DNA of 64,000 bases. Origin: Candidatus Acidiferrum sp. GTDB lineage: Bacteria > Acidobacteriota > Terriglobia > Terriglobales > Acidobacteriaceae. The notes beneath the pieces were generated by a model that saw only the letters and a list, made by a program, of their open reading frames with translations, had not been told where the DNA came from and ran no database searches. Shown in pieces: positions 2,430 through 53,648 of the stretch. The stretch's first letter is position 1. Each line of letters begins with the position of its first letter. The stretch is from the NCBI GenBank assembly GCA_035602195.1, contig DATNMU010000216.1, positions 4,853 through 68,852 of the forward strand, given 5' to 3'. A program made the position numbers and the translations under genes.

Positions 2430-3809
2430 TCAGTTACCACCGTCGCGACGAGTCTTCCAGATTTCTAACGCCTTCTCCAACTTCACCCCGCGCGAAGCTT
2501 TCAAAAGCACTGCGTCGCCATCCCGCGCCTCGCGTGCCAGCCATTCGCCGGCTTTCTCGGAATCGGCTGCAAACTCGGCGCGCATCCCCGCCTGCTTTGC
2601 TGCGCCCACCATCGCCTCAGCGAGGCCGCGCACGCCCAGCAACACATCGATTTTTTTCCCGGCGATATGTTCCCCGGCTTGCCGATGCAGCTCTTCGCCC
2701 GCCGGCCCCAGTTCCAGCATCTCCCCCGCAACCACGATGCGCCGTTTAGCCGCCATCCTCGCCAACGCATCCACCATTGCATCCAGGGCCTTTGGATTCG
2801 AATTGTAGCAATCGTTGATCACCGTGATGTTACCCACTTGAAGAACCTGACCACGCTTATCGGCCGCAGCCAAACTTGCCAGCGCCGCCACCGCCTCTGA
2901 AGGCTTCATCCCGCGCTCTAAGCCGACCGCAACTGCCGCCAGCGCATTCAGCACGTTATGCTCACCCACCAGCGGGAGAACCGCGTGTTCACGCACGCCT
3001 CCTATCACCACATCGAATTCAACCCCCTCGCGCCCCTTCGTCTGTATTTTTTCCGCACGCACGTCCGCTGTCGATCGAGTGCCATACATCACAACTTTCC
3101 CTTTGAACCCGCGCCCGAACTGCGAGACGTAATCGTCATCGGAGTTCAACACCGCTGTGCCATTCGCCGGCAGCGACTCGATTAATTCATATTTCGCCCG
3201 CGCAATCCCCGCCAGCGAATCAAAAAACTCCAAATGCACCGGCGCGACGTTCGTCACCACTCCAACCTCCGGATGCGCAATTGTCGCCAGCGCCCGGATT
3301 TCCCCCGGATGCGACATGCCCATCTCTATCACCGCCACCTCATATCCTGGCTCCAGTTTCAAGAGCATCAACGGCAAGCCGAAATGATTATTAAAATTTC
3401 CTTCGGACTTCAGCACGCGAAAGCGCGCGCTCAACACGTGCGCAATCGCTTCCTTCGTCGTCGTCTTTCCCGCTGACCCGGTCACTCCCACAAGCGTCTT
3501 GCCCCACAACTTCCGGACCGCTTTAGCCAAAGTTTGCAGCGCTACCAAGGTGTCTTCAACCGCCAGAAGCCGGGCCTTGTTCGCGTAGCGTCCCAACTGT
3601 TCTTTACCCACCACCGCCGCGACCGCGCCCTTTTCCAAAGCCTGCTGCACAAAATCGTGGCCATCCAGTCGCTCCCCCTTCACCGCAAAAAACAGCTGCC
3701 CCGCCCCGAGCGTCCTCGAATCAATGGAGTACCCCTCAACCACCTCTTCCGCCGAAAAATCTCCCTTCGCAGAAATGAATTCAGCGATCTTGGAAAGCGT
3801 GAGCTTCAT
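2430..3809 (-). CDS. murF: UDP-N-acetylmuramoyl-tripeptide--D-alanyl-D-alanine ligase MurF
   Basis: 459 aa with a Mur-ligase P-loop (GVTGSAGKTTTKE). Lies between murE and mraY. Confidence 0.93.
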   Translation of the reverse strand: MKLTLSKIAEFISAKGDFSAEEVVEGYSIDSRTLGAGQLFFAVKGERLDGHDFVQQALEKGAVAAVVGKEQLGRYANKARLLAVEDTLVALQTLAKAVRKLWGKTLVGVTGSAGKTTTKEAIAHVLSARFRVLKSEGNFNNHFGLPLMLLKLEPGYEVAVIEMGMSHPGEIRALATIAHPEVGVVTNVAPVHLEFFDSLAGIARAKYELIESLPANGTAVLNSDDDYVSQFGRGFKGKVVMYGTRSTADVRAEKIQTKGREGVEFDVVIGGVREHAVLPLVGEHNVLNALAAVAVGLERGMKPSEAVAALASLAAADKRGQVLQVGNITVINDCYNSNPKALDAMVDALARMAAKRRIVVAGEMLELGPAGEELHRQAGEHIAGKKIDVLLGVRGLAEAMVGAAKQAGMRAEFAADSEKAGEWLAREARDGDAVLLKASRGVKLEKALEIWKTRRDGGN

Positions 3810-11891: not shown

Positions 11892-12196
11892 ATTCCTAAT
11901 ATACCATAGTCGATACCAGCATTGAATATGGTGGACTCGGCGAAAGCACGGACCGGGATGGTCCAAAATTTTCGCCGTTACTCAGTCAACAAACGTGGAC
12001 ATGCAAAACCAGCCTCCGCGCACCATTTCCTCCACTGCTACAATTCCCTGTTTTGACGAAACTCGCCTCGCAAGAACTTTGGGCAGCACATCCACGTACT
12101 GTCTTGTGAGAAACGCGCATTCAAGTTTAAGAGTCTGGTTTCGCTGAAAGCTGACGGCTGATAGCTGACAGCCGCTTTTCCGGGGAGCTTCAACTT

Positions 12197-25461: not shown

Positions 25462-25689
25462 TTGTCTTCCTGAGCGAGGAATTTGTTTTGCGGTAGCAAA
25501 GCAAATCCGCAGTCCAAAGCCTGCCCTGAGCGAAGCCGAAGGGGATCCCTTGCGCCCCAAAAGCACTCGAACCCAGCAGAGGAATTCGCTCCCCAGTTTC
25601 AGCGCCGTCGGCTCGGCGCTTTTGGGTGGCGCAGCGCTTTAGCGCTGCGATTAAGATTCCCAAAACCCACCGGCTTTAGCCGCTGAGGT
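25462..25689. repeat. Composite of a family A-variant element (25462-25552) and a family C element (25620-25689) in the aspS/cmk convergent spacer
   Basis: 25462-25552 is about 90% identical to the reverse complement of 46813-46903. 25620-25689 (ttttgggtggcgcagcgctttagcgctgcg...ggctttagccgctgaggt) recurs at 32747-32819, 37598-37670 and 46636-46708 (inverted). Confidence 0.9.
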
Positions 25690-25745
25690 ACCCCAGGGGC
25701 TGGAACCTGGCTTGGTAACAATTTTTTTCAGCGCTGCAAAGCGAC

Positions 25746-26441: not shown

Positions 26442-26580
26442 TGAACAAGTAGATGATTGTACACGCACTCCGTTCCCCGCAGCCCGTGTGCCCCGCAGAC
26501 AAAAATTTAACAAACAAGTGACCGCCGCCACGCATCTTCCTTCGTGATTCCAACGTCTCATAGCACATACGTTGAAAGCG

Positions 26581-26640
26581 ATTCATGGTTCATAGATTCA
26601 TGGTTCATAGATTCATGGTTCACAGATTTATCGTTCATAG
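26581..26640. repeat. Tandem repeat, 4 x 15 bp (attcatggttcatag)
   Basis: attcatggttcatag attcatggttcatag attcatggttcacag atttatcgttcatag. Confidence 0.95.
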
Positions 26641-26742
26641 ATGTTGCCGCTTTGTAACGCTGTTGGCGCAGAGCACAGTGGGCGAACCTGCCCCTGTAAT
26701 GCGGCAGTCCGGTTGCAAGCCCGGACAGTGAAGGAGGGTCGC

Positions 26743-28051: not shown

Positions 28052-28143
28052 AAACAGTCTGTGAACGTAGCTGTCAGCTCTGCACTTGCGCAGTCGCCTT
28101 ACGGAAGGCTAAGAGCTAAGAGCTAGCAGCTAACAGCTGACAG

Positions 28144-30189
28144 CTAGATCCTCTTAAACGCCCTCTGAATCTCCCTTACAGAATACCGCAGAACCACCGG
28201 CCTCCCGTGCGGACAAGCCATGGGATGATCCGTCTTCGCCAGTTCCGCCAGCAACCACTCCATTTTATTTTGCTCCAGCGGCATGTTCACTTTGATGGCT
28301 GCATGGCAGGCGATCGACGCGGCAATCCGTCCCCGAATTTTTTCCAGATTCAGCGACTGCTCCTCCCGCGAAATTTCATCCAGCAACTCATGTAGCATGC
28401 GCTCGACCGCCGCTGCATCCACTCCAGCGGGCGCAACTTTTACCGCCACGCTGCGCGCCCCAAACGGTTCCGCTTCAAATCCGTTATGTTCCAGCTCTCC
28501 GGCAATCTCGGAAAATATCGCCTGCTGCGCCGGAGACAGTTCCAGCACAATCGGCATCAGCAGACGCTGGCTTTCCACTTTCTTCACCGCGCGTTGCTTC
28601 AGAATCCTCTCGAACAAAACTCGCTCGTGCGCCACATGCTGGTCCACAATCCACAATCCATCTTCATTGACCGCGAGAATAAAGGAATTTCGAATCTGCC
28701 CCAGCGGACGCAGCGTCGCCAGTGCGTCCAGCGTCGGCTCTCCCCGAACATTTTCCGCGACATCAAGTTCCCCACCGCACCCGTTATCCGGAACCGTTTC
28801 GGCAAAGTGCGATTCCAACCCGCGCGCCACCGGAATCGCGGCATTCGCCTCGACCGCAATTCCCCCTTCAAACTGAAAGCGCGCCGAAACCGGCGGCGGC
28901 ACCGCCGCCTGCAACGCGAATCCGCTGCCCGCGTTTTCGTAACCTGAGTTTTCGCAACCCGGATTTCCATAGGAAGCTCGCGACGCGCCCGCATCTTCGT
29001 GTGAAGCCCGCTCCGTACCCGCGTCCCAATCCCGCGCTCCCGGCGTGAGCCCCGAACTCGCTGTAGCGCGCGCATGAATCTCCGTCGTGAACTGCGGCGC
29101 CGGACGTGCCTTCATCAGCGCCGCCCTCACCGTGTCCCGCACAAAATCGTGCATCACCGTCGATTGCCGGAAGCGCACCTCCGTCTTCGAGGGATGCACA
29201 TTCACATCCACCTCGCCCGCTGGCATTTCCAGAAACAGCAGCACCACCGGATAAACCGAAGGCGGAATAATATTGCGATAAGCCTCCGTCAGCCCGTGCT
29301 GAATCAGCCGGTCGCGAATCAAACGCCCGTTCACAAACACATAAATCGAATTGCGATTCAGCTTCTGAATCTCCGGCTTCGAAACAAACCCGTGCAGCCG
29401 CATTTCCCCCGGCGTAGGGCGGGCACCCACACCCTCGTCATCCTGATTTTCTTCTTCCTGCCTCCTCCACGGCGGAGGCTGCGGCAACCCCACGCGCTCC
29501 AGTGCCTGCACCGCCGCCACGGCAATCAGTTGATCCAAAGTCTCTTTGCCGAATACCTGATAAACCCGCTCGCTGTATCCCGCCACCGGCGGTGCCACCA
29601 GCATGGCATTGCTCGTCGTATGCAACTCAAAATGCTTTTCCGGATGCGCCAGCGCATAGTGCGTAACCAGCGAGGCAATGTGTGAAAGTTCGGTCGACTC
29701 CGCTTTCAAAAACTTTTTCCGCGCCGGAGTATTAAAAAAAAGGTCGCGCACCGTAATCGAAGTACCCTCCGGCAATCCCGCCTCTTCCACCCGCGCCATC
29801 TTCCCGCCATTGATCTCGATCACGGTCCCGGAAGCCGATCCCGCATCCCGTGTCTCCAATCGCAGTCGCGCGACCGACGCAATCGAAGGCAGCGCCTCCC
29901 CTCGAAATCCCAGAGTGGACACGCTCAACAGATCTTCCGCATCTTTAAGCTTCGACGTCGCGTGCCGCTCAAAAGCCAGCATGGCATCGTCGCGCACCAT
30001 GCCGCACCCGTTATCCGTAATCTGAATGAGCTTTTTTCCCCCCGCCTCCACCGTAATCTTGATGCGGCTCGCGCCCGCGTCCAGCGCGTTCTCCAGCAAC
30101 TCCTTCACCACCGAAGCAGGCCGCTCCACCACCTCGCCCGCCGCGATCTTATTGGCAACCTGCTCGGAAAGTACGTGAATGCGCCCCAT
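28144..30189 (-). CDS. mutL: DNA mismatch repair protein MutL
   Basis: 681 aa. IAAGEVVERPASVVKELLENALDAG, DNGCGM, GFRGEAL. Long low-complexity linker. C-terminal dimerisation/endonuclease domain (DQHVAHERVLFE...CPHGRP). Confidence 0.93.
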   Translation of the reverse strand: MGRIHVLSEQVANKIAAGEVVERPASVVKELLENALDAGASRIKITVEAGGKKLIQITDNGCGMVRDDAMLAFERHATSKLKDAEDLLSVSTLGFRGEALPSIASVARLRLETRDAGSASGTVIEINGGKMARVEEAGLPEGTSITVRDLFFNTPARKKFLKAESTELSHIASLVTHYALAHPEKHFELHTTSNAMLVAPPVAGYSERVYQVFGKETLDQLIAVAAVQALERVGLPQPPPWRRQEEENQDDEGVGARPTPGEMRLHGFVSKPEIQKLNRNSIYVFVNGRLIRDRLIQHGLTEAYRNIIPPSVYPVVLLFLEMPAGEVDVNVHPSKTEVRFRQSTVMHDFVRDTVRAALMKARPAPQFTTEIHARATASSGLTPGARDWDAGTERASHEDAGASRASYGNPGCENSGYENAGSGFALQAAVPPPVSARFQFEGGIAVEANAAIPVARGLESHFAETVPDNGCGGELDVAENVRGEPTLDALATLRPLGQIRNSFILAVNEDGLWIVDQHVAHERVLFERILKQRAVKKVESQRLLMPIVLELSPAQQAIFSEIAGELEHNGFEAEPFGARSVAVKVAPAGVDAAAVERMLHELLDEISREEQSLNLEKIRGRIAASIACHAAIKVNMPLEQNKMEWLLAELAKTDHPMACPHGRPVVLRYSVREIQRAFKRI

Positions 30190-32268: not shown

Positions 32269-33927
32269 GTGCCCACCTTCCACGTCGAAAACTTCGGCTG
32301 CCGCGCCACGCAGGCCGACGGCGCCGCCCTCGAGCGCCAGTTCGAATCCCGCGGCCTCTCCCGCGCTCCATCGAACAGCGCCGACCTGGTCATATTGAAT
32401 ACTTGTACGGTCACGGGTTCCGCGGATCAAGACGCCCGCGCTGCCATCCGGCGGGTGCAGCGGCAAAATCCGTTGGCCAAAATCATCGTCACCGGATGTT
32501 ATGCACAGCGTGCGCCCGAAGAAATTGCCGCGCTGCCCGGTGTCACCGCAGTCATCGGCAACTCGCACAAACACCAACTCGCGGAAATCGCTTTAGAGAA
32601 TCTCGCGGACTGCACTCGCCCCGATCCCCTGCCGCCTGTCAATTCTGGGTCGCACCATTCCGGGTCGGGCAATTCTGGATCGAGCGATTCCGCGTCGGGT
32701 GATTCCGGGTCGGGTGATTCCGCGTCGGCCGATTTTGGGTCGGCCGATTTTGGGTGGCGCAGCGCTTCCAGCGCTGCGATTCCTCTTGCCCATTTTCAGC
32801 CGGCTTTAGCCGCTGAGGTCAACGGATTCATTCCAGTCGCGAATCTTACCGCCCAAGCCCGAAGCCCACAGCCCCAAGCCCGCCTCTTCGTCTCCGACAT
32901 CTTCGCCCACACCGAACTGCTGGCCGCGCCCGTCTTCGAATCCGCCAACCATCTTCAAGACCGCACTCGTCCCAACCTCAAAGTGCAGGATGGATGCGAC
33001 AACCGCTGTTCCTTCTGCGTAATCCCCAGCGTCCGTGGCCACAGCCGGTCGTTACCGGTGCGCGAAATTATTCGCGAGGTGAACACATTGGTGGGCGCGG
33101 GCTATCGCGAGGTTGTCATCAGCGGTATCAACCTCGGCCGCTGGGGGCGCGATTTAGCTCTCAGCCATACGCTTTCACCCATCCGCAACAGCCGCGCCAT
33201 GGACGGCCAACGACCAGCGACTAACGACCAACGACTCGAGTCCCTCATTCGCACCATTCTCGCCGAAACTCGACTGGAAAAGCTTCGCATCTCTTCCGTC
33301 GAACCGATGGATTGGACCGACGATCTCATCGCCCTCGTCGCCTCCTCGCCGCGCATCGCCAAGCACGCGCACGTCCCGCTGCAATCCGGCAGTGACGCCG
33401 TGCTTCGCCGCATGCACCGCAAATATCGTCCCTGGCACTATCGCGAGAAGATCGAAAAAATTCACGCCGCCATGCCCATCGCCGCCATCGGCGCCGACGT
33501 CATGACCGGATTCCCCTGTGAGACCGACGCCGAATTCGAAGCCACCCGCCGCCTCATCGAAGACCTGCCCTTCACTTATCTGCACGTCTTCACCTTCTCC
33601 GCCCGCCCCGGTACGCCGGCAGCGGCCATGCCCAATCAGGTTCCCGTCCACATCGCCCGCGAGCGCAACAAAATCCTGCGCGATCTCGCCACCGAAAAAA
33701 AACAAGCCTTTATGCGATCCTTTGTAGGGAAACAATTGGAGGCCATTACGCTCGCTCAGCATTCGCCCGACGGAGAATTTACCGAAGCCCTCACCGACAA
33801 CTATCAGAAATTCTTCCTAAAAGGCCGCCATGCCCCGAACCGTTGGATCAACGCACATGTAGAGCATTTGTCGGATGGTGTGCTGGTGGGAAGCACGTCC
33901 TCGTCCTCCCACGGCTTGTCATCCTAA
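32269..33927 (+). CDS. mtaB: MiaB-like tRNA methylthiotransferase (MtaB type) carrying an internal repeat-derived insertion
   Basis: FHVENFGCRATQADG...LNTCTVTGSADQDAR (MTTase N-domain). Radical-SAM CDNRCSFC, then a TRAM-like C-terminus. 552 aa. Confidence 0.85.
   Translation: MPTFHVENFGCRATQADGAALERQFESRGLSRAPSNSADLVILNTCTVTGSADQDARAAIRRVQRQNPLAKIIVTGCYAQRAPEEIAALPGVTAVIGNSHKHQLAEIALENLADCTRPDPLPPVNSGSHHSGSGNSGSSDSASGDSGSGDSASADFGSADFGWRSASSAAIPLAHFQPALAAEVNGFIPVANLTAQARSPQPQARLFVSDIFAHTELLAAPVFESANHLQDRTRPNLKVQDGCDNRCSFCVIPSVRGHSRSLPVREIIREVNTLVGAGYREVVISGINLGRWGRDLALSHTLSPIRNSRAMDGQRPATNDQRLESLIRTILAETRLEKLRISSVEPMDWTDDLIALVASSPRIAKHAHVPLQSGSDAVLRRMHRKYRPWHYREKIEKIHAAMPIAAIGADVMTGFPCETDAEFEATRRLIEDLPFTYLHVFTFSARPGTPAAAMPNQVPVHIARERNKILRDLATEKKQAFMRSFVGKQLEAITLAQHSPDGEFTEALTDNYQKFFLKGRHAPNRWINAHVEHLSDGVLVGSTSSSSHGLSS
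32640..32759 (+). repeat. Eight tandem 15-bp units inside the mtaB CDS, in frame (pentapeptide units NSGSH/HSGSG/DSASG/DFGSA)
   Basis: caattctgggtcgca ccattccgggtcggg caattctggatcgag cgattccgcgtcggg tgattccgggtcggg tgattccgcgtcggc cgattttgggtcggc cgattttgggtggcg. It is directly followed by a family C element (32747-32819). Confidence 0.9.
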
Positions 33928-35673: not shown

Positions 35674-36236
35674 CCCTTTCATGCAGTCATCCTGAGACCC
35701 ACACCCTTTGCGGCCCAAATGACCGGGCTAAACGACCTATTCATTTCGTCCTACCCACGCTCACATCTGCGCAGGTTCATCCGGGTCCGGCTCGCGCACC
35801 GGCGCATCCGGATTCTCCGGAGCATCAGGGGGTTCCTTAATCGGGGGCGGCGAAGGCTCCGGCGGTTTCCGCACGCGAAGAAAATCAGGCGGGAAGGTTT
35901 CAACTTCCAGAGAAACGGTCATCCCCCTCAGATGCCCAAACTGCAGAAATGGAAGCCGCGCCCCCAATCGCACCGCCTGCGCGCATCACCGGCAAACACC
36001 CGCGCCCCAACTCGCATCTCATTCCTGAACACGGTCGCGCCCGACGCGTCCAGCAGTTCGGACTCGCGAAGACGAACAGCGTCAGCGAATCGGCGGAGGA
36101 TATGAGGCGGTGAGGTTCAGATTTTTGCTGTTTCTCTGAACGGAGCCAACGAGCTATCTACGCCGATTCAGAGTCCCTCGCAAGCGCGCCCCTTCAGCAA
36201 CCTGCCCTGAGCCAAGCCGCACCCAGCCTTGCCACG

Positions 36237-36520
36237 GATTGTCATCCCGAGCGCAGCAAGATCACTCGCGAAGCGAATGATCCTGCGAAGTCGAGGGACC
36301 TGCTGTCTGCCTACATCGCCACCGATGAGCGGCCCTCGCTTTTCCGCTCACACAGGCACGCCCCATGTGGAGACAGCCGCCTCGGCTGTCCAAGCCTGGG
36401 CGCAGCCCGGCGCCCCCTACCACACTGCCGCCCCCCCGCTGACAAATCCGAATAAACACGCATGTTTGAAATACCGTGGAAGAGCGGCGCTTCCAGCGCC
36501 GCGTAAAGGCGCTTCTGCCT
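36237..36520 (+). repeat. Composite repeat, about 285 bp, copy 1 (family A + B + C modules)
   Basis: About 85-90% identical by eye to 37299-37600 in the same orientation, apart from a roughly 30-bp indel. A third partial copy lies at 37705-37790. Confidence 0.9.
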
Positions 36521-36531
36521 GGCGCAGCCCT

Positions 36532-37068
36532 TCAGCGCCCCGATAACGCATTCGCGCCACCGCCCCTTACCCCCCGCGCATCCAACCCCTGCCCCTCACC
36601 CGCGCCCCGCCCCTTCTCTTCCTTCTTCGCGTACGACCCTCCTCGCCACCGCCGCAACAAATGCCACGCCTCCAAATATCTTTCATACTTATTCTGCCGT
36701 CTCCACGGAGCCAGCCAGATGCTTCCCTTCCGCAGCGCCACCACTCCCGCCGGAATCACATACCACAGGTCCAGCGGAATCAGATACGCCGCCACATAAT
36801 CAATCTCCTCTAGTATGTGCCGCAATCTTTTTCCCGACGGCATGTGGCACGGATACGCCCCTCCCTTCGGCTTCCTCATCGTCGACTTCACCTGCACCCG
36901 GTTCACCAGCCCATCCCGCTCCACAATCAAGTCATAAGGAGCCGAATCTCCCCACAGCTTCCCCACCCGAAACCCCTGCTCCACTCCCCGCGCCAAAAAT
37001 CGCGCCTCCGCCCACTCCCCCCGTTCTTTCGCATTCTTGAATTGCATCCCCCGTTGTCCCATCGCCAT
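36532..37068 (-). CDS. PD-(D/E)XK endonuclease-like protein (group-I-intron-endonuclease-like family, PDDEXK_5 type)
   Basis: KERGEWAEARFLARGVEQGFRVGKLWGDSAPYDLIVERDGLVNRVQVKST has the E...D...(Q/E)VK nuclease-core pattern. The Gly/Arg-rich C-terminal tail is probably repeat-derived. Confidence 0.6.
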   Translation of the reverse strand: MAMGQRGMQFKNAKERGEWAEARFLARGVEQGFRVGKLWGDSAPYDLIVERDGLVNRVQVKSTMRKPKGGAYPCHMPSGKRLRHILEEIDYVAAYLIPLDLWYVIPAGVVALRKGSIWLAPWRRQNKYERYLEAWHLLRRWRGGSYAKKEEKGRGAGEGQGLDARGVRGGGANALSGR

Positions 37069-37298
37069 CCTCGCCTTCCCAAAAGAAAAGCGCGGCCCCT
37101 GTGGAATACAAAAGGCCGCGCTCCAGATTTTTTTCTAGTTTTTACTCTATATTTCCATTATATCAATCAGCAAACCCCTAAAGCGCCACCTTAGCCAGCA
37201 ATATTTCTCCTTTCCCTGCCACCACATACCCTCAATCGCGTAATTTCTGCCTATTGACAACATTCCCCGCAAATTGAAAAAAGAGTTCGCTAACCACC

Positions 37299-37600
37299 GA
37301 TTGTCATCCCGAGCGCAGCAAGATCATTCGCGAAGCGAAGGATCTTGCGAAGTCGAGGGACCTGCTGTCTGCCTACGTCGCCACCAATGAGCGGCCCTAG
37401 CTTTTTCGCTCATACAAGCTCGGACCATGTGGAGACAGCCGCCTCGGCTGTCCAAGCCTGAGCCTGCCCTGAGCGATAGCCGAAGGGGCGAAGCCCGGCG
37501 CCCCCGACCACACTGCCCGCCCCCCGCTGACAAATCCAAATAAATACGGATGCCTGAAATACTTGGAAGAGCGGCGCTTCCAGCGCCGCGTAAGCCGCCT
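37299..37600 (+). repeat. Composite repeat, about 300 bp, copy 2
   Basis: Direct repeat of 36237-36520 on the other side of the endonuclease gene. Confidence 0.9.
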
Positions 37601-38001
37601 TTGGGTGGCGCAGCGCTTCAGCGCTGCGATAAAACATGGACTAGAGGAACCGGGCTTCAGCCCGGTCGCCTAAGACCTGTCCTCCTCCAACACCCTTGCA
37701 ACGAATTGTCATCCCGAGCGAAGCAAGATCATTCGCGAAGCGAAGGATCCGGCAAAGTCGAAGGACCTGCTGTTTGCCTACGTCGCCACTAATGACCGAC
37801 AGCACGCTGTCTTCCTGAGCGCAGCCGAAGGGATCTCCGCCGCACCCTCTCGCCGGCTGGCAGCAGCAGAAAGTGACGAAATAACTCCGCCCGCTGTGCT
37901 GAAAACGCGTCAGTCCCTATTGCATGAGGACAATCTAGTTTGTCCGCCGGACTAAGTTTGTGAAGTGTGAACGTCCCCCCTCACGGCAAAACCGGGCTTG
38001 A

Positions 38002-41834: not shown

Positions 41835-41986
41835 AGCTTCGCCCGATTTATCTGCATTGAAGACGCCGCAACTCACGTCGACGATTCCAGAGCAATTTAG
41901 AAGTTGAAATAGAAATAAGAAATAAGAGATAGGAAATGAATGTTCAGCGCTGAAAGCTGCCAGCTGACAGCCGACCTTGAGGAACT

Positions 41987-42851: not shown

Positions 42852-44060
42852 ATGTATAGCGTTCCCAGGTTGACGGATTACTCGGCGGCGGCGCTGGAAC
42901 GCGCCTCCGCTGAACTTTTTTCTGCGCTCGGCGAGGAAGCGTCGGCGGTGAAGAGCGAAGCGGATTGGAAGATTTTTCGCGACCGATGGATGGCGCGGAA
43001 GAACGGCGTGCTGACGCAGATTAATGATCTCTGGCTCAAGGGCGCCCCTAAAGAGGCGAAGCGTGAGGTCGGGATTCGCGTCAATGAGTTGAAGGCGCAC
43101 ATTACGGACCTTGTCGAACGGGACAAAGAAGAAATAGCTTCCCGACAATTTGCGGGCACACATTCAGGCGATTACGATTACAGCCCAGTTGCGCGGCAGA
43201 TGCAGAACTATAGCGGCTATCCGACTGGAATCACTTTCGAAAATCCCATAGTTCCTCCCCAGATTGATATCACGCTGCCCGGGATTCGGCGTCCTATCGG
43301 CGCGGAACATCCGGTTATCAAGACGACGAACGAGATGGTGCGGGTGTTTCAGAAGCTGGGGTACTCGGTGGCGGAGGGGCCAGTCGTTGAAACTGATTAT
43401 TACAACTTCGAGTCGCTGAATTTTCCGGTGAACCATCCGGCGCGGGATACGCAGGATACTTTGTTCATCGCGGGGCAGCAGGGGAAGGCGCAGCGGGAGC
43501 GGTTGTTGCTGCGCACGCATACTTCGCCGGTGCAGATTCGGACGATGGAGAAGATGCGGCCGCCGCTGCGCATTGTGATTCCGGGGACGGTGCATCGGAA
43601 TGATCCTCCGGACGCGAGCCACTCGCCCATGTTTCATCAGATTGAAGGTCTGGCGGTCGATACCAATATTACGTTTGGAGATTTGAAGGGCACGCTCGAT
43701 CATGCGATGAAGGAATTTTTTGGGTCGAGCGTGAAGACGAGTTTTCGTCCGTCATTTTTTCCGTTCACCGAGCCGAGCGCGGAGATGTTTGTGTCGTGCT
43801 TTATTTGCGGCGGGAGTGGCAGACGAGGGAGTGACCCGTGCCGTCCGTGCAAGCAGACGGGATGGATTGAAATTCTTGGGTGCGGGATGGTCGATCCGAA
43901 TGTGTTTGAGTTTGTGAAGGACAATGGGTATGACCCGAGGAAGGTTTCGGGATTTGCCTTTGGCATGGGTGCGGACCGGATCGCGTTGCTGAAGTATGGA
44001 GTGGACGATATTCAGTTGTTCTTCCAGGGGGACGTGAGGTTTTTGCGGCAGTGGGTGTAG
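42852..44060 (+). CDS. pheS: Phenylalanine--tRNA ligase alpha subunit
   Basis: From the ATG at 42852. [74 protein letters not shown]. Confidence 0.92.
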
Positions 44061-44090
44061 GGAGCTCTTAGCCATTAGCTCTTAGCCATT

Positions 44091-44128
44091 AGCTCTTGGC
44101 TCTTAGCTAAGGCTAAGAGCCAAGAGCT
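44091..44128. repeat. Perfect 17-bp stem / 4-nt loop hairpin (family D, AGCT-rich), ending 13 nt before the pheT ATG
   Basis: agctcttggctcttagc-taag-gctaagagccaagagct. It is part of the AGCT-rich block 44061-44135. Other family D sites are 28106-28147, 42749-42781, 58060-58094, 58505-58539, 63530-63560 and 63648-63676. Confidence 0.9.
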
Positions 44129-44140
44129 AAAAGCTGATTC

Positions 44141-46618
44141 ATGAAAATTTCTCCACAGTGGGTGCGGGAGTTTGTTGATCTATCCGTCGACGACCAGCGG
44201 CTGGCGGAGGATTTGACGGCGGCGGGAATTGCGGTCGAAGGAATTTCCGGCTCCGGCGCGGACACTGTGTTCGAGATGGAGATTGGGACGAACCGTCCGG
44301 ACGCGATGAATCATTATGGAATCGCGCGGGAGGCGGCGGCGATTTATGACTTGCGGCTGAAAGAGCTGTCAGCTGTCAGCTCTCAGCTTTCAGCGAACCC
44401 ATCGAAGGCGAGTGTTAAGGCGTCTGACATGGCGCTGAAGCGGCGCTCTTCCACGGGGCGGGGTGGCGCTAAGAAGAAAGCCTCAGCGGCTAAAGCCGCT
44501 TCTTCTGCTGCTTCTCACGGCGCGGCTGGAAGCCGCGCCCTTTCAAGGCAAACATCAGGGGCTGAAGCCCTTTCCTCTTCTGCCTCTTACGGGACGACTC
44601 GAGTCGTGCCCTTCCCCATCACTGTCGAGGAGCCGGAGTTGTGTCCGCGGTTTTCGGCGCGGGTGATTCGCGGGACCAGGATTAAGGCTTCGCCTGAGAA
44701 GATTGCACATCGGTTGCGGTTGCTGGACCAGCGGCCTATTTCGAATGCGGTTGACGCGACCAATTATGTTTTGTGGGAAATGGGCAAGCCGACGCATGTA
44801 TTCGACATGGGTTTGCTGGAGGGTGGGCGGCTCATTATCCGGCGCGCGAAGGATGGGGAGAAGCTGAAGACGCTGGATGGAGTGGAGCGCACGCTGTCTT
44901 CGGAAGATCTGGTCGTGGCTGATGCGAAAAAACCTGTTGGGCTTGCGGGTGTAATGGGCGGGTTCGACACCATGATTACCGACAGGACAAAAAATATTTT
45001 GATTGAGTCCGCGTGGTGGGATCCGGTGACGGTGCGCAAAACTTCGCGGCGGCACGGGATTCATACCGACGCTTCGCATCGGTTTGAGCGGGGAGCGGAC
45101 TTTGAGTCGACGGTTTTGTCGTGCGATCTGGTGGCGAAGCTGATTTTGGAATCGGGCGGCGGAGAGTTGGTGGGCGGCGCGATTGATGTGGTGTCACGGC
45201 AGATGGATCAGGCACCGATTGTTTTGCGGCTTTCGGAGGTACATCGGATACTCGGTGGGAATCTGAGTGCGGGAGAAATCTTCCGCATTCTGAAAAAGCT
45301 TGGGTTTGGTGTGATTCCAGAAGGGCAGGCGGACGCGAAATTTCGCGTGCAGATTCCTAGCTGGCGGCTGGACGTGGAGCGCGAGATCGATTTGCTTGAA
45401 GAGATCGCGCGGGTGCACGGGTACGACAAGTTTGAAAATACTTTGCCGGCGTATAGCGGCGCGGTTGTGGATTTGCCGAATGCGGCGATGGATGTGGCTT
45501 TTCGCGAGCGGGCGTTGGCTCTGGGTTACAACGAGGCGGTGTCGCTGACGTTTATTTCGCATGCGGCGGCGGAGACGTTTGGATTCCTGACGGAGGCCTC
45601 AGCGGCTATTGCCGTAGATCATTTGTCGGCGAGTACGGCTCGGCTGGGAGCCGCGCCCTTTCAAAGCGCGAGCGGGCGAGTGTTAGATGCGGCGACCCTT
45701 CCAATCCGGAACGAACCTGGGCTGGACGCCGCATCCCTTGCGAGCGGCACTGGGCGGGTACTCGAGTTGGAGAATCCGTTGAGCGAAGAAGCGAGTGTGA
45801 TGCGGACTTCGCTGGCGCCGGGGATGCTCGACATGCTGGCGTGGAACTTGAACCGCGATGCGGAAGAAGTGCGGCTGTTTGAGATGGGGCGCGTGTATGA
45901 GATGCGCAGCGGAGAGCGGGTTGAGCCGCAGCGTGCGTGCCTGGGAGCAACGATGGCGTCGGTCGTAGGATCGCTGCCGGCGGCTGGCAGGCTGGACATC
46001 AGCGGGCCGTTGAATTCCCCATTCAAGCCAAAAGAAGGCTTGAATGGGGCACCCCTTCAAGTGGAAGCTTTTCGCGGGTTCAAAGGCGACGTGGAGAATT
46101 TGCTGGCGGCATTTTCATATCGCGAGTTGAGCTTCGATCGGAAGACCGCGGGGCATTTTCATCGGTGGCGCTCGGCGCGCGCTTTGATGGATGGGGCGGT
46201 GGTGGCGCAGTTTGGGCAGATTGCGGAAGAGGTGAAGGCGGAGCGGAAGTTACGGCAGGATATTTTTCTGGCGGAGTTCGATTTGGACGAACTGCACGCG
46301 CGCGGGCTGCGGGCAGTTCGATTTGCGGCCTTGGGAAAATATCCGGCGGTGGAGCGGGATTTTTCGTTTGTATTTTCGGATGAGGTGGAGTTTGAGGCGA
46401 TGCGGCGGGCGGTGATGGCGCTGGGGATTCGCGAGTTGCGTGAATTCAGGCCGGTGGAGATTTTTCGGGGTGGGTCGATTGGCGCGAGCAAGTATTCAAT
46501 TTTGCTGCGGGCGAAGTTGCAATCGGATGAGGGGACGTTGCGGGATGAGCAGATTGCGCAGTGGGCGGAGAAGATGGTTGGGGCGCTGAAGGGTATTGGT
46601 GGGGTGCAGCGGGCTTAG
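44141..46618 (+). CDS. pheT: Phenylalanine--tRNA ligase beta subunit (no B2 tRNA-binding domain; three repeat-derived insertions)
   Basis: 825 aa. MKISPQWVREFV, IGTNRPDAMNHYGIAREAAAIY, LCPRFSARVIRG, NAVDATNYVLWEMGKPTHVFD, GLAGVMGG, and the FDX-ACB-like C-terminus (KYPAVERDFSFVF). Confidence 0.92.
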   Translation: MKISPQWVREFVDLSVDDQRLAEDLTAAGIAVEGISGSGADTVFEMEIGTNRPDAMNHYGIAREAAAIYDLRLKELSAVSSQLSANPSKASVKASDMALKRRSSTGRGGAKKKASAAKAASSAASHGAAGSRALSRQTSGAEALSSSASYGTTRVVPFPITVEEPELCPRFSARVIRGTRIKASPEKIAHRLRLLDQRPISNAVDATNYVLWEMGKPTHVFDMGLLEGGRLIIRRAKDGEKLKTLDGVERTLSSEDLVVADAKKPVGLAGVMGGFDTMITDRTKNILIESAWWDPVTVRKTSRRHGIHTDASHRFERGADFESTVLSCDLVAKLILESGGGELVGGAIDVVSRQMDQAPIVLRLSEVHRILGGNLSAGEIFRILKKLGFGVIPEGQADAKFRVQIPSWRLDVEREIDLLEEIARVHGYDKFENTLPAYSGAVVDLPNAAMDVAFRERALALGYNEAVSLTFISHAAAETFGFLTEASAAIAVDHLSASTARLGAAPFQSASGRVLDAATLPIRNEPGLDAASLASGTGRVLELENPLSEEASVMRTSLAPGMLDMLAWNLNRDAEEVRLFEMGRVYEMRSGERVEPQRACLGATMASVVGSLPAAGRLDISGPLNSPFKPKEGLNGAPLQVEAFRGFKGDVENLLAAFSYRELSFDRKTAGHFHRWRSARALMDGAVVAQFGQIAEEVKAERKLRQDIFLAEFDLDELHARGLRAVRFAALGKYPAVERDFSFVFSDEVEFEAMRRAVMALGIRELREFRPVEIFRGGSIGASKYSILLRAKLQSDEGTLRDEQIAQWAEKMVGALKGIGGVQRA

Positions 46619-46937
46619 GGCGTGGGGGGCGCGTACCTCGGGGGCTAAAGCCACGACTCCAAGGTGAATCCTTAATCGCAGCGCTGGAAGCGCTGCGCCA
46701 CCCAAAATCTACATTGGGGCGCGGAAGTGTAACGGGCGCGGTGCAGTCGGATGGCGCCGTCGAATGAGCAGAAGCAGAAATTCCTTTCGAGGCTGGCGGT
46801 CTCGTACACAGGTAAGGGATCCCCTTCGGCTTCGCTCAGGGCAGGCTTTCGACTGCGGAATTGCTTTGCTAGCGCAAAGCAAATTCCTCGCTCAGGATGA
46901 CAAATCCTAATTGAATTGTTGTGCTAATCTGCCAGCT

Positions 46938-48152
46938 ATGGCGGATGTTATTTCTTCTCTCTCTACCCACCAAAAACAATTTTTTAGCGACAAGGTTTCG
47001 CGGTTTACCGAGTCGGTGATTCGGGAGATGACGCGGCAGGCGGCGCTGCATGGGGCGGTGAATCTGGCGCAGGGGTTTCCGGATTTTGCGGCACCGGCGG
47101 AAATCAAGGCAGCGGCGCGGGCGGCGATTGATGGCGACGTGAATCAGTATGCGATCACCTGGGGCGCGAAGAATTTGCGCAATGCGATTGCGCGCCAGAT
47201 GGGCGTGTGGCAAGGGATTGCGGTCGATCCGGAAAAAGAAGTTACGGTTTGTTGCGGGTCGACTGAGGCGATGATTTCTACTTTGCTCGCGGTGTGCAAC
47301 GCAGGCGATGAGGTGGTGATCTTCGAGCCGTTTTATGAGAATTACGGGCCGGACGCAGTGTTGAGCGGGGCGCGGCCGCGGTTTGTGAAGTTACGGCCGC
47401 CAGCGAATGCGGGCAGCGAGTGGACGTTTGATGAGAAAGAATTGCGGGCGGCGTTTGATAAGAATACGAAGGCCGTCATACTTAATACACCCAATAACCC
47501 TACTGGGAAAGTTTTCACGCGAGCCGAGTTGGAATTAATTCGCGATCTTTGCGTTGAGTGCGACGTGCTCGCGATCACCGACGAAATTTACGAGCATATT
47601 TTGTATGACGGGACCGAGCATATTTCGATGGCGTCGCTGGAGGGAATGCGGGAGCGGACGGTGACGATCAATGGAATGTCGAAGACGTACAGCGTGACGG
47701 GATGGCGCGTGGGATGGGCGGTTGCACCGGAGGAGATTACGAATGCGATCCGAAAAGTGCATGATTTTTTGACGGTGGGCGCGCCGGCGCCGCTGCAGGA
47801 GGCGGGCGTGGTGGCGTTGAGTTTGCCGGCGGAATATTACGCGAAGCTGGCGGAGGGTTATCGGGTACGGCGCGATCATTTGATTCCGGCGCTGGAGGCG
47901 GCGGGGTTCAAGTGTTTTCGTCCGCGAGGAGCGTATTACGTAATGACGGATATTTCAGGGTTTGGATTTGAGGATGATGTTGCGTTTACGAAATATCTGG
48001 TGAAAGAGATTGGAGTGGCGGCGGTGCCGGGGTCGAGTTTTTATCGGGATGCGCGGGATGGAGCGCGGCAGGTGCGGTTTGCGTTCTGCAAGAAGGTGGA
48101 GACGCTGGATAGGGCGGCGGAGAGGTTGGGGAAGTTGCGTGGGCGAAAGTAG
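46938..48152 (+). CDS. Pyridoxal-phosphate-dependent aminotransferase, class I/II
   Basis: MADVISSL...AVNLAQGFPDF...YENYGP...LNTPNNPTGKVF...NGMSKTYSVTGWRVGW (PLP lysine context SKT). Confidence 0.88.
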   Translation: MADVISSLSTHQKQFFSDKVSRFTESVIREMTRQAALHGAVNLAQGFPDFAAPAEIKAAARAAIDGDVNQYAITWGAKNLRNAIARQMGVWQGIAVDPEKEVTVCCGSTEAMISTLLAVCNAGDEVVIFEPFYENYGPDAVLSGARPRFVKLRPPANAGSEWTFDEKELRAAFDKNTKAVILNTPNNPTGKVFTRAELELIRDLCVECDVLAITDEIYEHILYDGTEHISMASLEGMRERTVTINGMSKTYSVTGWRVGWAVAPEEITNAIRKVHDFLTVGAPAPLQEAGVVALSLPAEYYAKLAEGYRVRRDHLIPALEAAGFKCFRPRGAYYVMTDISGFGFEDDVAFTKYLVKEIGVAAVPGSSFYRDARDGARQVRFAFCKKVETLDRAAERLGKLRGRK

Positions 48153-53378: not shown

Positions 53379-53648
53379 CGCGCAGTCCTCCCAAAGGCGG
53401 ATGGTACGCCGCGTGCAATCCCTGCGTCAAACGCACATCCCGCTTATATTCATTTTGTTTTCTGATACTTATAGGCAACGAGGTCGGAACAATAGCGGCG
53501 AACACGCGGCGAATAAAGGACTGGATTTGGCGGCGTCTCCCGCCTCAGCGGCTGAGGCCGGATTCTTTTTGTGCTCGGCTTTCGGCACGATTGAAATCGT
53601 GCCCTTCCCGGTTGCGAAAAATATGGACCCGAGCGGGGCGAGGCGGAT

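Follow-up and report, generated by a model that had tools for sequence, protein, structure and literature searches.

In a 64-kb stretch of a Candidatus Acidiferrum sp. metagenome-assembled genome (contig DATNMU010000216.1; hereafter the window), the gene pheT for the β subunit of phenylalanyl-tRNA synthetase (PheRS) contains a long repeat-built tract, termed insertion 1 (44361–44616, + strand; residues about 74–159). This tract very probably results from dispersed repeat DNA that built up in frame within the flexible linker joining domains B1 and B3/4. Two sites in pheT are taken up by a structured repeat family, here called the bipartite element, and a third site by a second repeat type. The element content differs from species to species, with both orientations and several reading frames in use, and the frame and its openness are kept throughout. 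The conserved entity is the nucleic-acid hairpin and not the peptide.

The pheT coding sequence (44141–46618, +) encodes 825 amino acids in the open reading frame (ORF) map and is, according to the gene calls, the last gene of the operon infC-rpmI-rplT-pheS-pheT. Pfam analysis identified B3_4, B5, CLM (tRNA_synthFbeta), and FDX-ACB domains in PheT and no match to B2/tRNA_bind, which indicated a short-type PheRS β subunit, and a model of the protein matched PheRS β structures in Foldseek with an E-value of about 1e-59. The reading frame is open across insertion 1, and its translation is as quoted in the initial annotation, which was made from the sequence alone. PheT was compared with 79 species-level orthologues from the Sulfotelmatobacter/Acidoferrum clade of Terriglobia (80 orthologous loci, 8 kb each) and with 110 distant PheT representatives (<50% identity) aligned to the window protein. 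N51-R52-P53-D54 and E164..C168-P169-R170-F171 were invariant in 77 relatives; therefore, the positions of the NRPD and E-x-x-L-CPRF motifs, and the distance of about 110 residues that had been noted between them, were confirmed. The spacing from A65 to C168 was 102 residues in the window versus a median of 35 in the distant proteins (5th–95th percentile, 32–38.6), in agreement with the few tens of residues initially given for characterised PheT proteins, and it was 34–37 in many close relatives. Judged by this spacing, the segment is not an ancestral domain with counterparts in distant orthologues.

Site 1, between REAAAIY and CPRF, was 90–303 nt long in the 79 orthologues and 294 nt in the window, and a canonical linker of 90–99 nt was seen in about 12 of the clade's species. 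The initial figure of about 85 inserted codons applied to the repeat-built tract (256 nt, 85 codons) and was too high for the true excess over the canonical linker, which is 65–68 codons, because the heptamer array and the terminal VVPFPI described below belong to the linker of normal length. Two further insertions were found in the gene: insertion 2 (residues about 481–537, DNA 45580–45750) adds 53 residues in a loop of the catalytic-like domain, and insertion 3 (residues about 620–635) adds 12. The three together explain the length of 825 residues versus 691 in the shortest relatives. The predicted folding of insertion 1 was stronger than that of shuffled sequences (z = −2.3, 3/200), and a pheT control of the same length gave z = −0.7.

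The bipartite element is about 72–75 nt long. It consists of a near-invariant first hairpin (CCTCAG-CGGC-TAAA-GCCG), a spacer of about 20–22 nt, a second hairpin of 8 bp, which is variable in sequence, always pairs, and has a TGAA or TAAA loop, and a short tail that is pyrimidine-rich or ACCCAAAA. An exact-match scan of metagenome contigs with the 18-mer of the first hairpin (module Hf) gave at least 120 contigs, of which 80 (85 copies) were examined; all counts of metagenome copies given here are among these matches listed. A generic hairpin finder showed that 72 of the 85 copies are followed, 12–33 nt downstream, by a perfectly paired hairpin of 6 bp or more. The second hairpins comprised 37 different stems, with TGAA loops in 39 copies and TAAA loops in 15. 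About 6 of the 85 copies lay inside long open frames and about 79 did not. A covariance model, R1, was constructed from 57 of the copies; those inside genes, including pheT, were left out. In this alignment, helix 2 was paired in 96.7%, all eight of its pairs changed on both sides (93 compensatory cells), and its covariation score was reached by none of 500 shuffles. Genomes of the clade contain many copies of this element family, most of them between genes. Rfam 15 yielded no family at the gathering score on any element copy in the window, and in 43900–46950 only chance microRNA-like matches to plain hairpins. An intrinsic-terminator scan of the sense strand of insertion 1 detected no terminator-like site; hence, its hairpins are not classical terminators. 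R1 was run on the window with filters off. Module profiles for nhmmer were also used; because these were trained on pheT copies of the orthologues (window excluded), R1 was preferred as the main test.

Insertion 1 was resolved into a heptamer array followed by three repeat units, all on the + strand. The array, AGCTGTC × 4.4 (44364–44394; period 7 by Tandem Repeats Finder), encodes LSAVSSQLSA and matches intergenic arrays at 12140–12172 (91% over 33 nt, E 4e-6), 41948–41971, and 28128–28145. Period-7 runs of at least 21 nt occurred at this site in 29 of the 80 sequences, whereas no such run was found for period 5, 6, 8, or 9 and none in shuffled sequences. The hairpin modules recognized in the gene were Hf (CCTCAGCGGCTAAAGCCGC, read as SAAKAAS), Hb (GCGGCGCTGAAGCGCCGCTCTTCCACG, AALKRRSST), Hc (GGCGCGGCTGGAAGCCGCGCCCTTTCAA, GAAGSRALSK), He (GGCACGACTGAAGTCGTGCCCTTCCC, GTTEVVPFP), Ha (GCAGCGCTGAAGCGCTGCGCCACC, AALKRCAT), and the longer hairpin Hg (read as PLLAKDARNGAP). 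They are linked: an Hf-type hairpin is followed after about 20–22 nt by one other hairpin and a short tail.

Unit 1 (44395–44460) is a decayed element with a degenerate first hairpin; its second hairpin, of Hb type, makes up GGCGCTGAAGCGGCGCTCTTCCACG together with its tail and is read as ALKRRSST. An Hb profile built from the orthologues matched the window at 44431–44456 (E 1.7e-7) and also in intergenic DNA at 36473–36504 and 37564–37591. Unit 2 (44478–44552) is a full-length element of Hf plus Hc type, composed of CCTCAGCGGCTAAAGCCGC, a 20-nt spacer, GGCGCGGCTGGAAGCCGCGCC, and CTTTCAA, and encodes ASAAKAASSAASHGAAGSRALSR; R1 matched it over model positions 1–75 with 68.8 bits (E 1e-15). Unit 3 (44555–44623) is composed of an Hf-like hairpin, TCAGGGGCTGAAGCCC, a spacer, the He hairpin GGGACGACTCGAGTCGTGCCC, and TTCCCC, and encodes SGAEALSSSASYGTTRVVPFP; it scored 29.7 bits under R1 (E 1e-5) and E 1.8e-6 under the He profile, and its tail runs into the conserved PFPIT of the host protein. 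The starts of units 2 and 3 are 72 nt, or 24 codons, apart. The 18-mer CCTCAGCGGCTAAAGCCG (44481–44498) recurs as exact reverse-strand copies at 25671 and 32801 and as near copies at 45597, 46636, and 53543, giving 6 matches in the window versus 0.12 expected, a number reached in 0 of 100 shuffles. Further hairpins are formed by GCGCGGCTGGAAGCCGCGCC (44520–44539), GGGGCTGAAGCCC (44558–44570), and GGGACGACTCGAGTCGTGCCC (44591–44611). Thus, the array and the four hairpin sequences that had been attributed to intergenic modules are all present, and both R1 and the nhmmer profiles, which matched the intergenic copies of the window at E 1e-5 to 2e-8, bore out their likeness to spacer DNA. If the segment is translated, predicted tryptic peptides across the unit junctions would include ASAAKAASSAASHGAAGSR and one spanning ALSR/QTSGAEALSSSASYGTTR.

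R1 identified eight significant copies in the window, four of which are intergenic, at 36.8–71.5 bits. These lie at 25617–25691 (−; 71.5 bits, E 2e-16) between convergent ORFs, at 37596–37668 (−; 36.8 bits), where a solitary Hb hairpin adjoins at 37564–37591 (E 2.3e-6), at 53540–53616 (+; 52.9 bits) with a second hairpin of He type, and at 46633–46710 (+; 50.3 bits), 15 nt past the pheT stop codon. Insertion 2 of pheT contains a copy at 45594–45670 (+; 44.5 bits; direct repeat D3). Another copy (32745–32821, −; 64.5 bits) is located inside an ORF for a MiaB/MtaB-like methylthiotransferase (32269–33927, +) and is read in frame as WRSASSAAI..QPALAAEV. Between the UPF0004 (residues 4–97) and Radical_SAM (residues 238–430) domains, this protein has about 90 extra residues (32620–32900) with four repeat features in frame, including a 15-nt tandem array (32642–32755), the bipartite element, and a GCCCGAA heptamer array (32851–32882). 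On the metagenome contigs, in-frame copies were found in genes for a RecG helicase, a DnaE-family polymerase, a conserved hypothetical protein, and another PheT (L158, L145, L125/L156, and L161). The polymerase gene has two copies, one within the HHH_6 domain, the hypothetical protein carries its copy at the same site on two contigs, and the other PheT has it at the site of insertion 1. The second repeat type in pheT, at insertion 3, is the Hg hairpin (46017–46053, +; CCCCA-TTCAAGCC-AAAAGAA-GGCTTGAA-TGGGGCACC), which has perfect 13-nt arms (inverted repeat I8) and encodes SPFKPKEGLNGAP. The Hg pattern matched the window once versus 0.04 expected, and orthologues carry it at site 1, at site 3, and in the DNA downstream of pheT.

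In the 80 orthologous loci, R1 detected 107 copies. Site 1 held 62 elements (58 sense and 4 antisense) in 56 species, site 2 held 15 in 14 species, and the flanking DNA (448 kb) held 29, of which 11 begin 4–14 nt past the pheT stop codon. At least one element is carried by pheT in 60 of the 79 species-level genomes. All tract lengths were multiples of three (79/79 at site 1 and 74/74 at site 2). In the pheT gene of the window, two copies of module Hc that agree at 91% over 33 nt are translated in different frames, giving AAGSRALS at site 1 and ARLGAAPFQ at site 2, and the reverse-orientation unit at site 1 in L027, L073, L077, and L080 reads GKGTTSVVP...ALAAEV. Site 2 is empty (FSSA) in most orthologues, so the polarity of the site-2 insertion is clear.

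Among the pheT orthologues, stem changes are compensated and peptides altered: GCGGCGC/GCGCCGC alternates with GCGGCCC/GGGCCGC, which turns KRR into KGR, and AGCGGC/GCCGC alternates with AGGGGC/GCCCC, which turns SAAKAA into SGAKAP. The He stem likewise occurs as GGCACGGC/GCCGTGCC, GGCCCGAC/GTCGGGCC, and GGCACGAT/ATCGTGCC. An AlphaFold2 run with 77 close relatives only had a mean predicted local distance difference test (pLDDT) score of 51, with poor conserved domains as well, and could not single out the insertion; hence, a diverse alignment was used. The mean pLDDT was then 84.7, and the only segments below 50 were residues 87–152, 492–535, and 620–635, which coincide exactly with the three insertions and were predicted to have no secondary structure. 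Residues 87–152 had a pLDDT of about 30, and the flanking domains exceeded 90. Insertion 1 is thus predicted to be disordered. By alignment to 4P71 (Pseudomonas) and 3PCO, site 1 maps between residues 189 and 203 of 4P71, in the B1–B3 linker, and site 2 maps between residues 524 and 530 of the same enzyme.

The accumulation of repeat DNA may be explained as follows. Copies would enter by a hairpin-dependent DNA process. It is about equally plausible that they did or did not do so by repetitive extragenic palindromic (REP)-type transposition with an enzyme encoded elsewhere. Entry by template switching or recombination between copies is a tentative proposal; it would also account for the exchange of second hairpins, the tandem units, and the 15–18-nt arrays at element tails. 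Selection would then retain copies that keep the frame and have no stops, in loops tolerating extra peptide, and the inserted segment would be tolerated rather than required. A stop codon interrupts three of the six frames in which the first hairpin can be read, which may explain the restricted set of peptides. Tandem arrays of 15–18 nt were observed to extend from element tails at the site-1 3′ junction in L020, L024, L015, and L026 and at site 2 in L006 and L019, as in PFPIPPFPTSSFPIPSFPIPPFPTSSFPISSFPIT (L020) and LGHSSLLGHSSLLGHPKT (L006).

Several observations weigh against the accumulation of dispersed repeat DNA as the origin of the tract. Translation of the segment is inferred. No transposase was identified in the 64 kb of the genome and the 8-kb orthologous loci, including the genes called at 34–56 kb of the window, and the element, which starts with ACCTCAG... 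and ends with ...CCCTTTCAAAA, has no terminal inverted repeats. When filled and empty alleles of site 2 were compared, both junctions were found to carry additional sequence that is not part of the element, and no target-site duplication was seen. Without clean junctions, target-site duplication, or terminal inverted repeats, transposition is not demonstrated. In a neighbour-joining tree of PheT, the filled site-2 allele requires 13 changes for 17 occurrences, and many filled alleles have the 5′ junction FGFSG in common. These findings indicated that the tree is poor or that alleles recombine between lineages and that gains and losses cannot be counted reliably; parsimony on this single-protein tree was used solely to call the distribution patchy. 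Unit 1 is weak as a whole unit, since its R1 match (44378–44460) had 11 bits and E 0.5, and it was counted as a full unit because relatives read SGAKAQ..AALKRRSST. The He tail CCCTTCCCGATC is identical to the PFPI codons of the host, which makes the 3′ boundary and the direction of the tail similarity ambiguous. Stop codons occurred within the site-1 tract in 2 of the 79 orthologues, L004 (about 3050–3080) and L064 (about 3020–3150), where the hairpin frame has TAA or TGA. Finally, the site-1 insert of the window has a net charge of +11, some sign of constraint at the protein level, and R1 scores of intragenic copies were above those of flanking intergenic copies.

The last two points bear on the possibility, which we consider unlikely, that the insertion-derived segment is now maintained as a flexible polybasic tether that aids tRNA binding and partly replaces B2. 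This proposal is compatible with the repeat origin and differs in invoking maintenance for protein function. Beyond the better preservation of intragenic copies, it draws on the charge at site 1, which increases with insert length across species (r = 0.60) and is about neutral for site-2 inserts, on the missing B2/tRNA_bind domain, and on the closest relatives, which keep ALKRRSSTGR.GAKKK.SAAKA with the non-hairpin spacer included. However, about 12 species within the clade function with the short canonical linker and likewise have no B2, and the content, order, orientation, and frame of units vary freely among species. The extra sequence, about 67 residues, is Ala/Ser-rich, with a basic Ser/Ala/Lys/Gly-rich composition, and its basic residues are a direct product of how the hairpins read in their open frames (GCT AAA GCC; CTG AAG CGC CGC). 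Moreover, the compensatory stem changes alter the peptide, with one Arg lost, and neither secondary structure nor confident contacts were predicted for the segment.

A purely local origin, in which a lineage-specific low-complexity expansion or an ancestral domain grew by slippage within pheT and resembles intergenic DNA by coincidence or composition, is very improbable. Slippage does operate here, as indicated by the true period-7 array and the PFPIxx arrays of 15–18 nt at the 3′ junction in some orthologues, and the 72-nt spacing of units 2 and 3 is what tandem duplication would give. Nevertheless, R1, which was not trained on pheT, matched the whole of unit 2 (E 1e-15), and exact 18-mers recur at 25671 and 32801. 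Copies of the element, in one orientation or the other, also occur at a second pheT site, past the stop codon, and within further genes, and the segment is absent from distant and many close orthologues.

Least probable of all is an artefact or a segment removed on the way to a mature PheT of normal length by an intron, an intein, or translational bypass. The genome is metagenome-assembled, the region is rich in stable hairpins, and two orthologues have stops in the tract, but the identical 825-residue protein is encoded by three independent assemblies, which excludes misassembly, and in-frame tracts of differing length, all multiples of three, occur in 79 species. In both L004 and L064, paired +1/+2 indels relative to close relatives enclose the stops, and both are MFD-series assemblies, which we take to be long-read; for these two reasons they are likely sequencing errors. 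No Rfam intron or ribozyme matched 43900–46950, and no intein-like domains were detected by Pfam. A strain variant with 99.5% identity differed at four positions, none within the insertions, and no length polymorphism within the insertions was found inside 90% clusters (strain level). Inteins, introns, clustered regularly interspaced short palindromic repeat (CRISPR) arrays, and prophage remnants had no supporting domain, RNA family, or repeat-spacer structure.

The surroundings of pheT and the rest of the window contain further repeats. The pheS-pheT spacer (44063–44135) forms a hairpin of heptamer/14-mer repeats, AGCTCTTAGCCATT × 3.3 plus its complement. One of three same-strain assemblies (L081) lacks 14 nt at some point upstream of pheT. 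Judged by the gene coordinates, this would be a loss of two heptamers from the spacer array; if so, array length differs within the population. Thirteen short tandem arrays of period 7, several arranged as inverted pairs, were found in intergenic spacers (5517, 5578, 12143, 28108, 32851, 33203, 41906, 41949, 42751, 44063, 44105, 58063, and 58504), and octamer arrays of CACAGAGA/TCTCTGTG were found at 1117, 1222, and 41013. A direct repeat of about 275–300 nt (36232–36506 and 37294–37593; 88–100% identical in blocks) flanks a gene of the PDDEXK_5 nuclease family (about 36518–37068, −). An Hb hairpin closes both copies, and the upstream one is next to a bipartite element; the arrangement may represent either a repeat cluster that was duplicated or a mobile cassette of small size. 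A dispersed intergenic repeat, ..GGGATCCCCTTCGGCTTCGCTCAGGGCAGGC.., occurs near bipartite copies at 25462–25551, 37691–37798, and 46814–46904, and in metagenome locus L106 it is inserted within the second hairpin of the element. A match to the type-P5 twister ribozyme (RF02684; 26667–26724, +; 49.7 bits versus a gathering score of 37.6) lies directly downstream of a 15-nt tandem array (26580–26642).

In-frame palindromic repeats have so far been discussed mostly for Rickettsia and a few proteobacteria. The pheT case spans a large acidobacterial clade whose members live freely in peat and soil, and it concerns an essential aminoacyl-tRNA synthetase. Because its units, orientations, and frames are species-specific, pheT of this clade provides a natural series for the passage from non-coding repeat to protein and for loop tolerance. 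Such insertions inflate protein lengths, seed spurious low-complexity "families" in metagenome protein catalogues, and may lead to errors when terriglobial proteins are aligned, assigned to orthologues, or searched for domains. An element with one invariant and one strongly covarying hairpin, often just past stop codons and absent from Rfam, is a candidate new repeat or RNA motif. A more far-reaching proposal, with little probability in our view, is that the element is an active, as yet undescribed small mobile or structured element of Terriglobia that repeatedly enters the same loops of the essential genes for PheT, RecG, DnaE-family polymerase, and MtaB, and that the lineage-specific, polybasic, disordered tails of PheT have been taken over as a tRNA tether replacing B2. 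If true, free-living soil bacteria would regularly gain new functional segments of their proteins from repeat DNA.

Among known systems, REPs of the GTAG/CGTC type were compared first. Intragenic REPs are documented outside Rickettsia, including in tRNA synthetase genes, and favour repair and replication genes, encoding 20–30 residues per dimer and up to 43–82 per cluster (Di Nocera, De Gregorio and Rocco 2013, PMC3733652). In-frame repeats are therefore less exotic than the initial annotation implied. REPs of this type are stem-loops of 20–40 nt that bear a GTAG or CGTC (or TGTC/CCTC) tag at one end and are followed by a short tail. The modules resemble them as short GC-rich stem-loops with a 4–5-nt loop, occurring as dimers or clusters, and the hosts are alike, with PheT, RecG, and DnaE-family polymerase here beside the repair/replication and tRNA synthetase genes of REPs. 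The CGTC tag is CCTC in many repeats (PMC3733652). CCTC precedes the first hairpin in all copies, where it was imposed by the search pattern, and GAC-G, which is CGTC when read from the opposite strand, stands before some of the second hairpins; the tails are CTTTCAA, CTTCCC, and ACCCAAA rather than CCA. In contrast to CGTC stems, which are 8–9 bp long and start with two A-T pairs, the stems here are GC-rich throughout (GGCACGGC, GCGGCGC, CGGC) and measure 5–6 bp in the first and 8 bp in the second hairpin, and the two hairpins are unlike, one invariant and the other covarying. Acidobacteria are not among the lineages with such REP families, and Koribacter is listed solely for repeats with long terminal inverted repeats (PMC3733652).

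The two-hairpin unit, abundant between genes and often clustered, also resembles REPINs. A REPIN consists of two inverted copies of the same REP, forms a replicating entity of about 70–100 nt, and is abundant in intergenic DNA, often in clusters; in the work of Bertels and Rainey from 2011, REPINs are said to be mobilised by RAYT transposases. The element is not a REPIN, because its two hairpins differ in stem, flanks, and conservation. Nor is it a MITE (miniature inverted-repeat transposable element), because its ends are not inverted repeats; the site-2 alleles also show no duplication. The period-7 intergenic arrays of the window resemble cyanobacterial heptanucleotide short tandemly repeated repetitive (STRR) sequences. 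Such arrays and small dispersed repeats were reportedly described by Mazel et al. in 1990 and Elhai et al. in 2008. In both cases, 7-nt tandem arrays are scattered between genes, with tiny hairpin repeats nested in or beside them; the phylum and the sequences differ, and here an array stands in a coding sequence and is read as a peptide with a period of seven residues. The enterobacterial RU/ERIC sequences are intergenic units with open frames that occasionally form in-frame fusions (Delihas 2007, PMC2759123). They are comparable in that intergenic repeat units fused in frame give new peptide segments; however, they are 100–170 bp long and have terminal inverted repeats, whereas the element is much smaller, has none, and shows far higher occupancy of one gene across a clade.

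A search of the literature on Acidobacteria with REPs, MITEs, or intragenic repeats found no specific description, in accordance with the initial annotation, and the element family is apparently undescribed in the Sulfotelmatobacter/Acidoferrum clade. In-frame palindromic repeats are an established phenomenon; of interest here are the scale of the pheT hot spot and the apparently undescribed element. The initial annotation had likened the tract to Rickettsia palindromic elements (RPEs), of which RPE-1 to RPE-10 are known (Ogata et al. 2000; Claverie and Ogata 2003; see the summaries in PMC10969869 and PMC3733652). The likeness held for the behaviour: a dispersed hairpin repeat is found between genes and in frame in unrelated housekeeping genes, keeps the frame, and would yield peptide. 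RPE insertions lie in regions compatible with the fold, and the pheT insertion falls in a linker region predicted to be disordered. Family membership did not hold. The RPE host is a reduced obligate intracellular alphaproteobacterium, in contrast to a free-living soil acidobacterium, and RPEs are about 100–150 bp long, in contrast to a bipartite unit of about 75 nt. Here, several units are also stacked at one site beside a heptamer array, in both orientations and several frames. The pheT element therefore appears to be a functional analogue of RPEs and not a member of their family, set apart by unit length and host.

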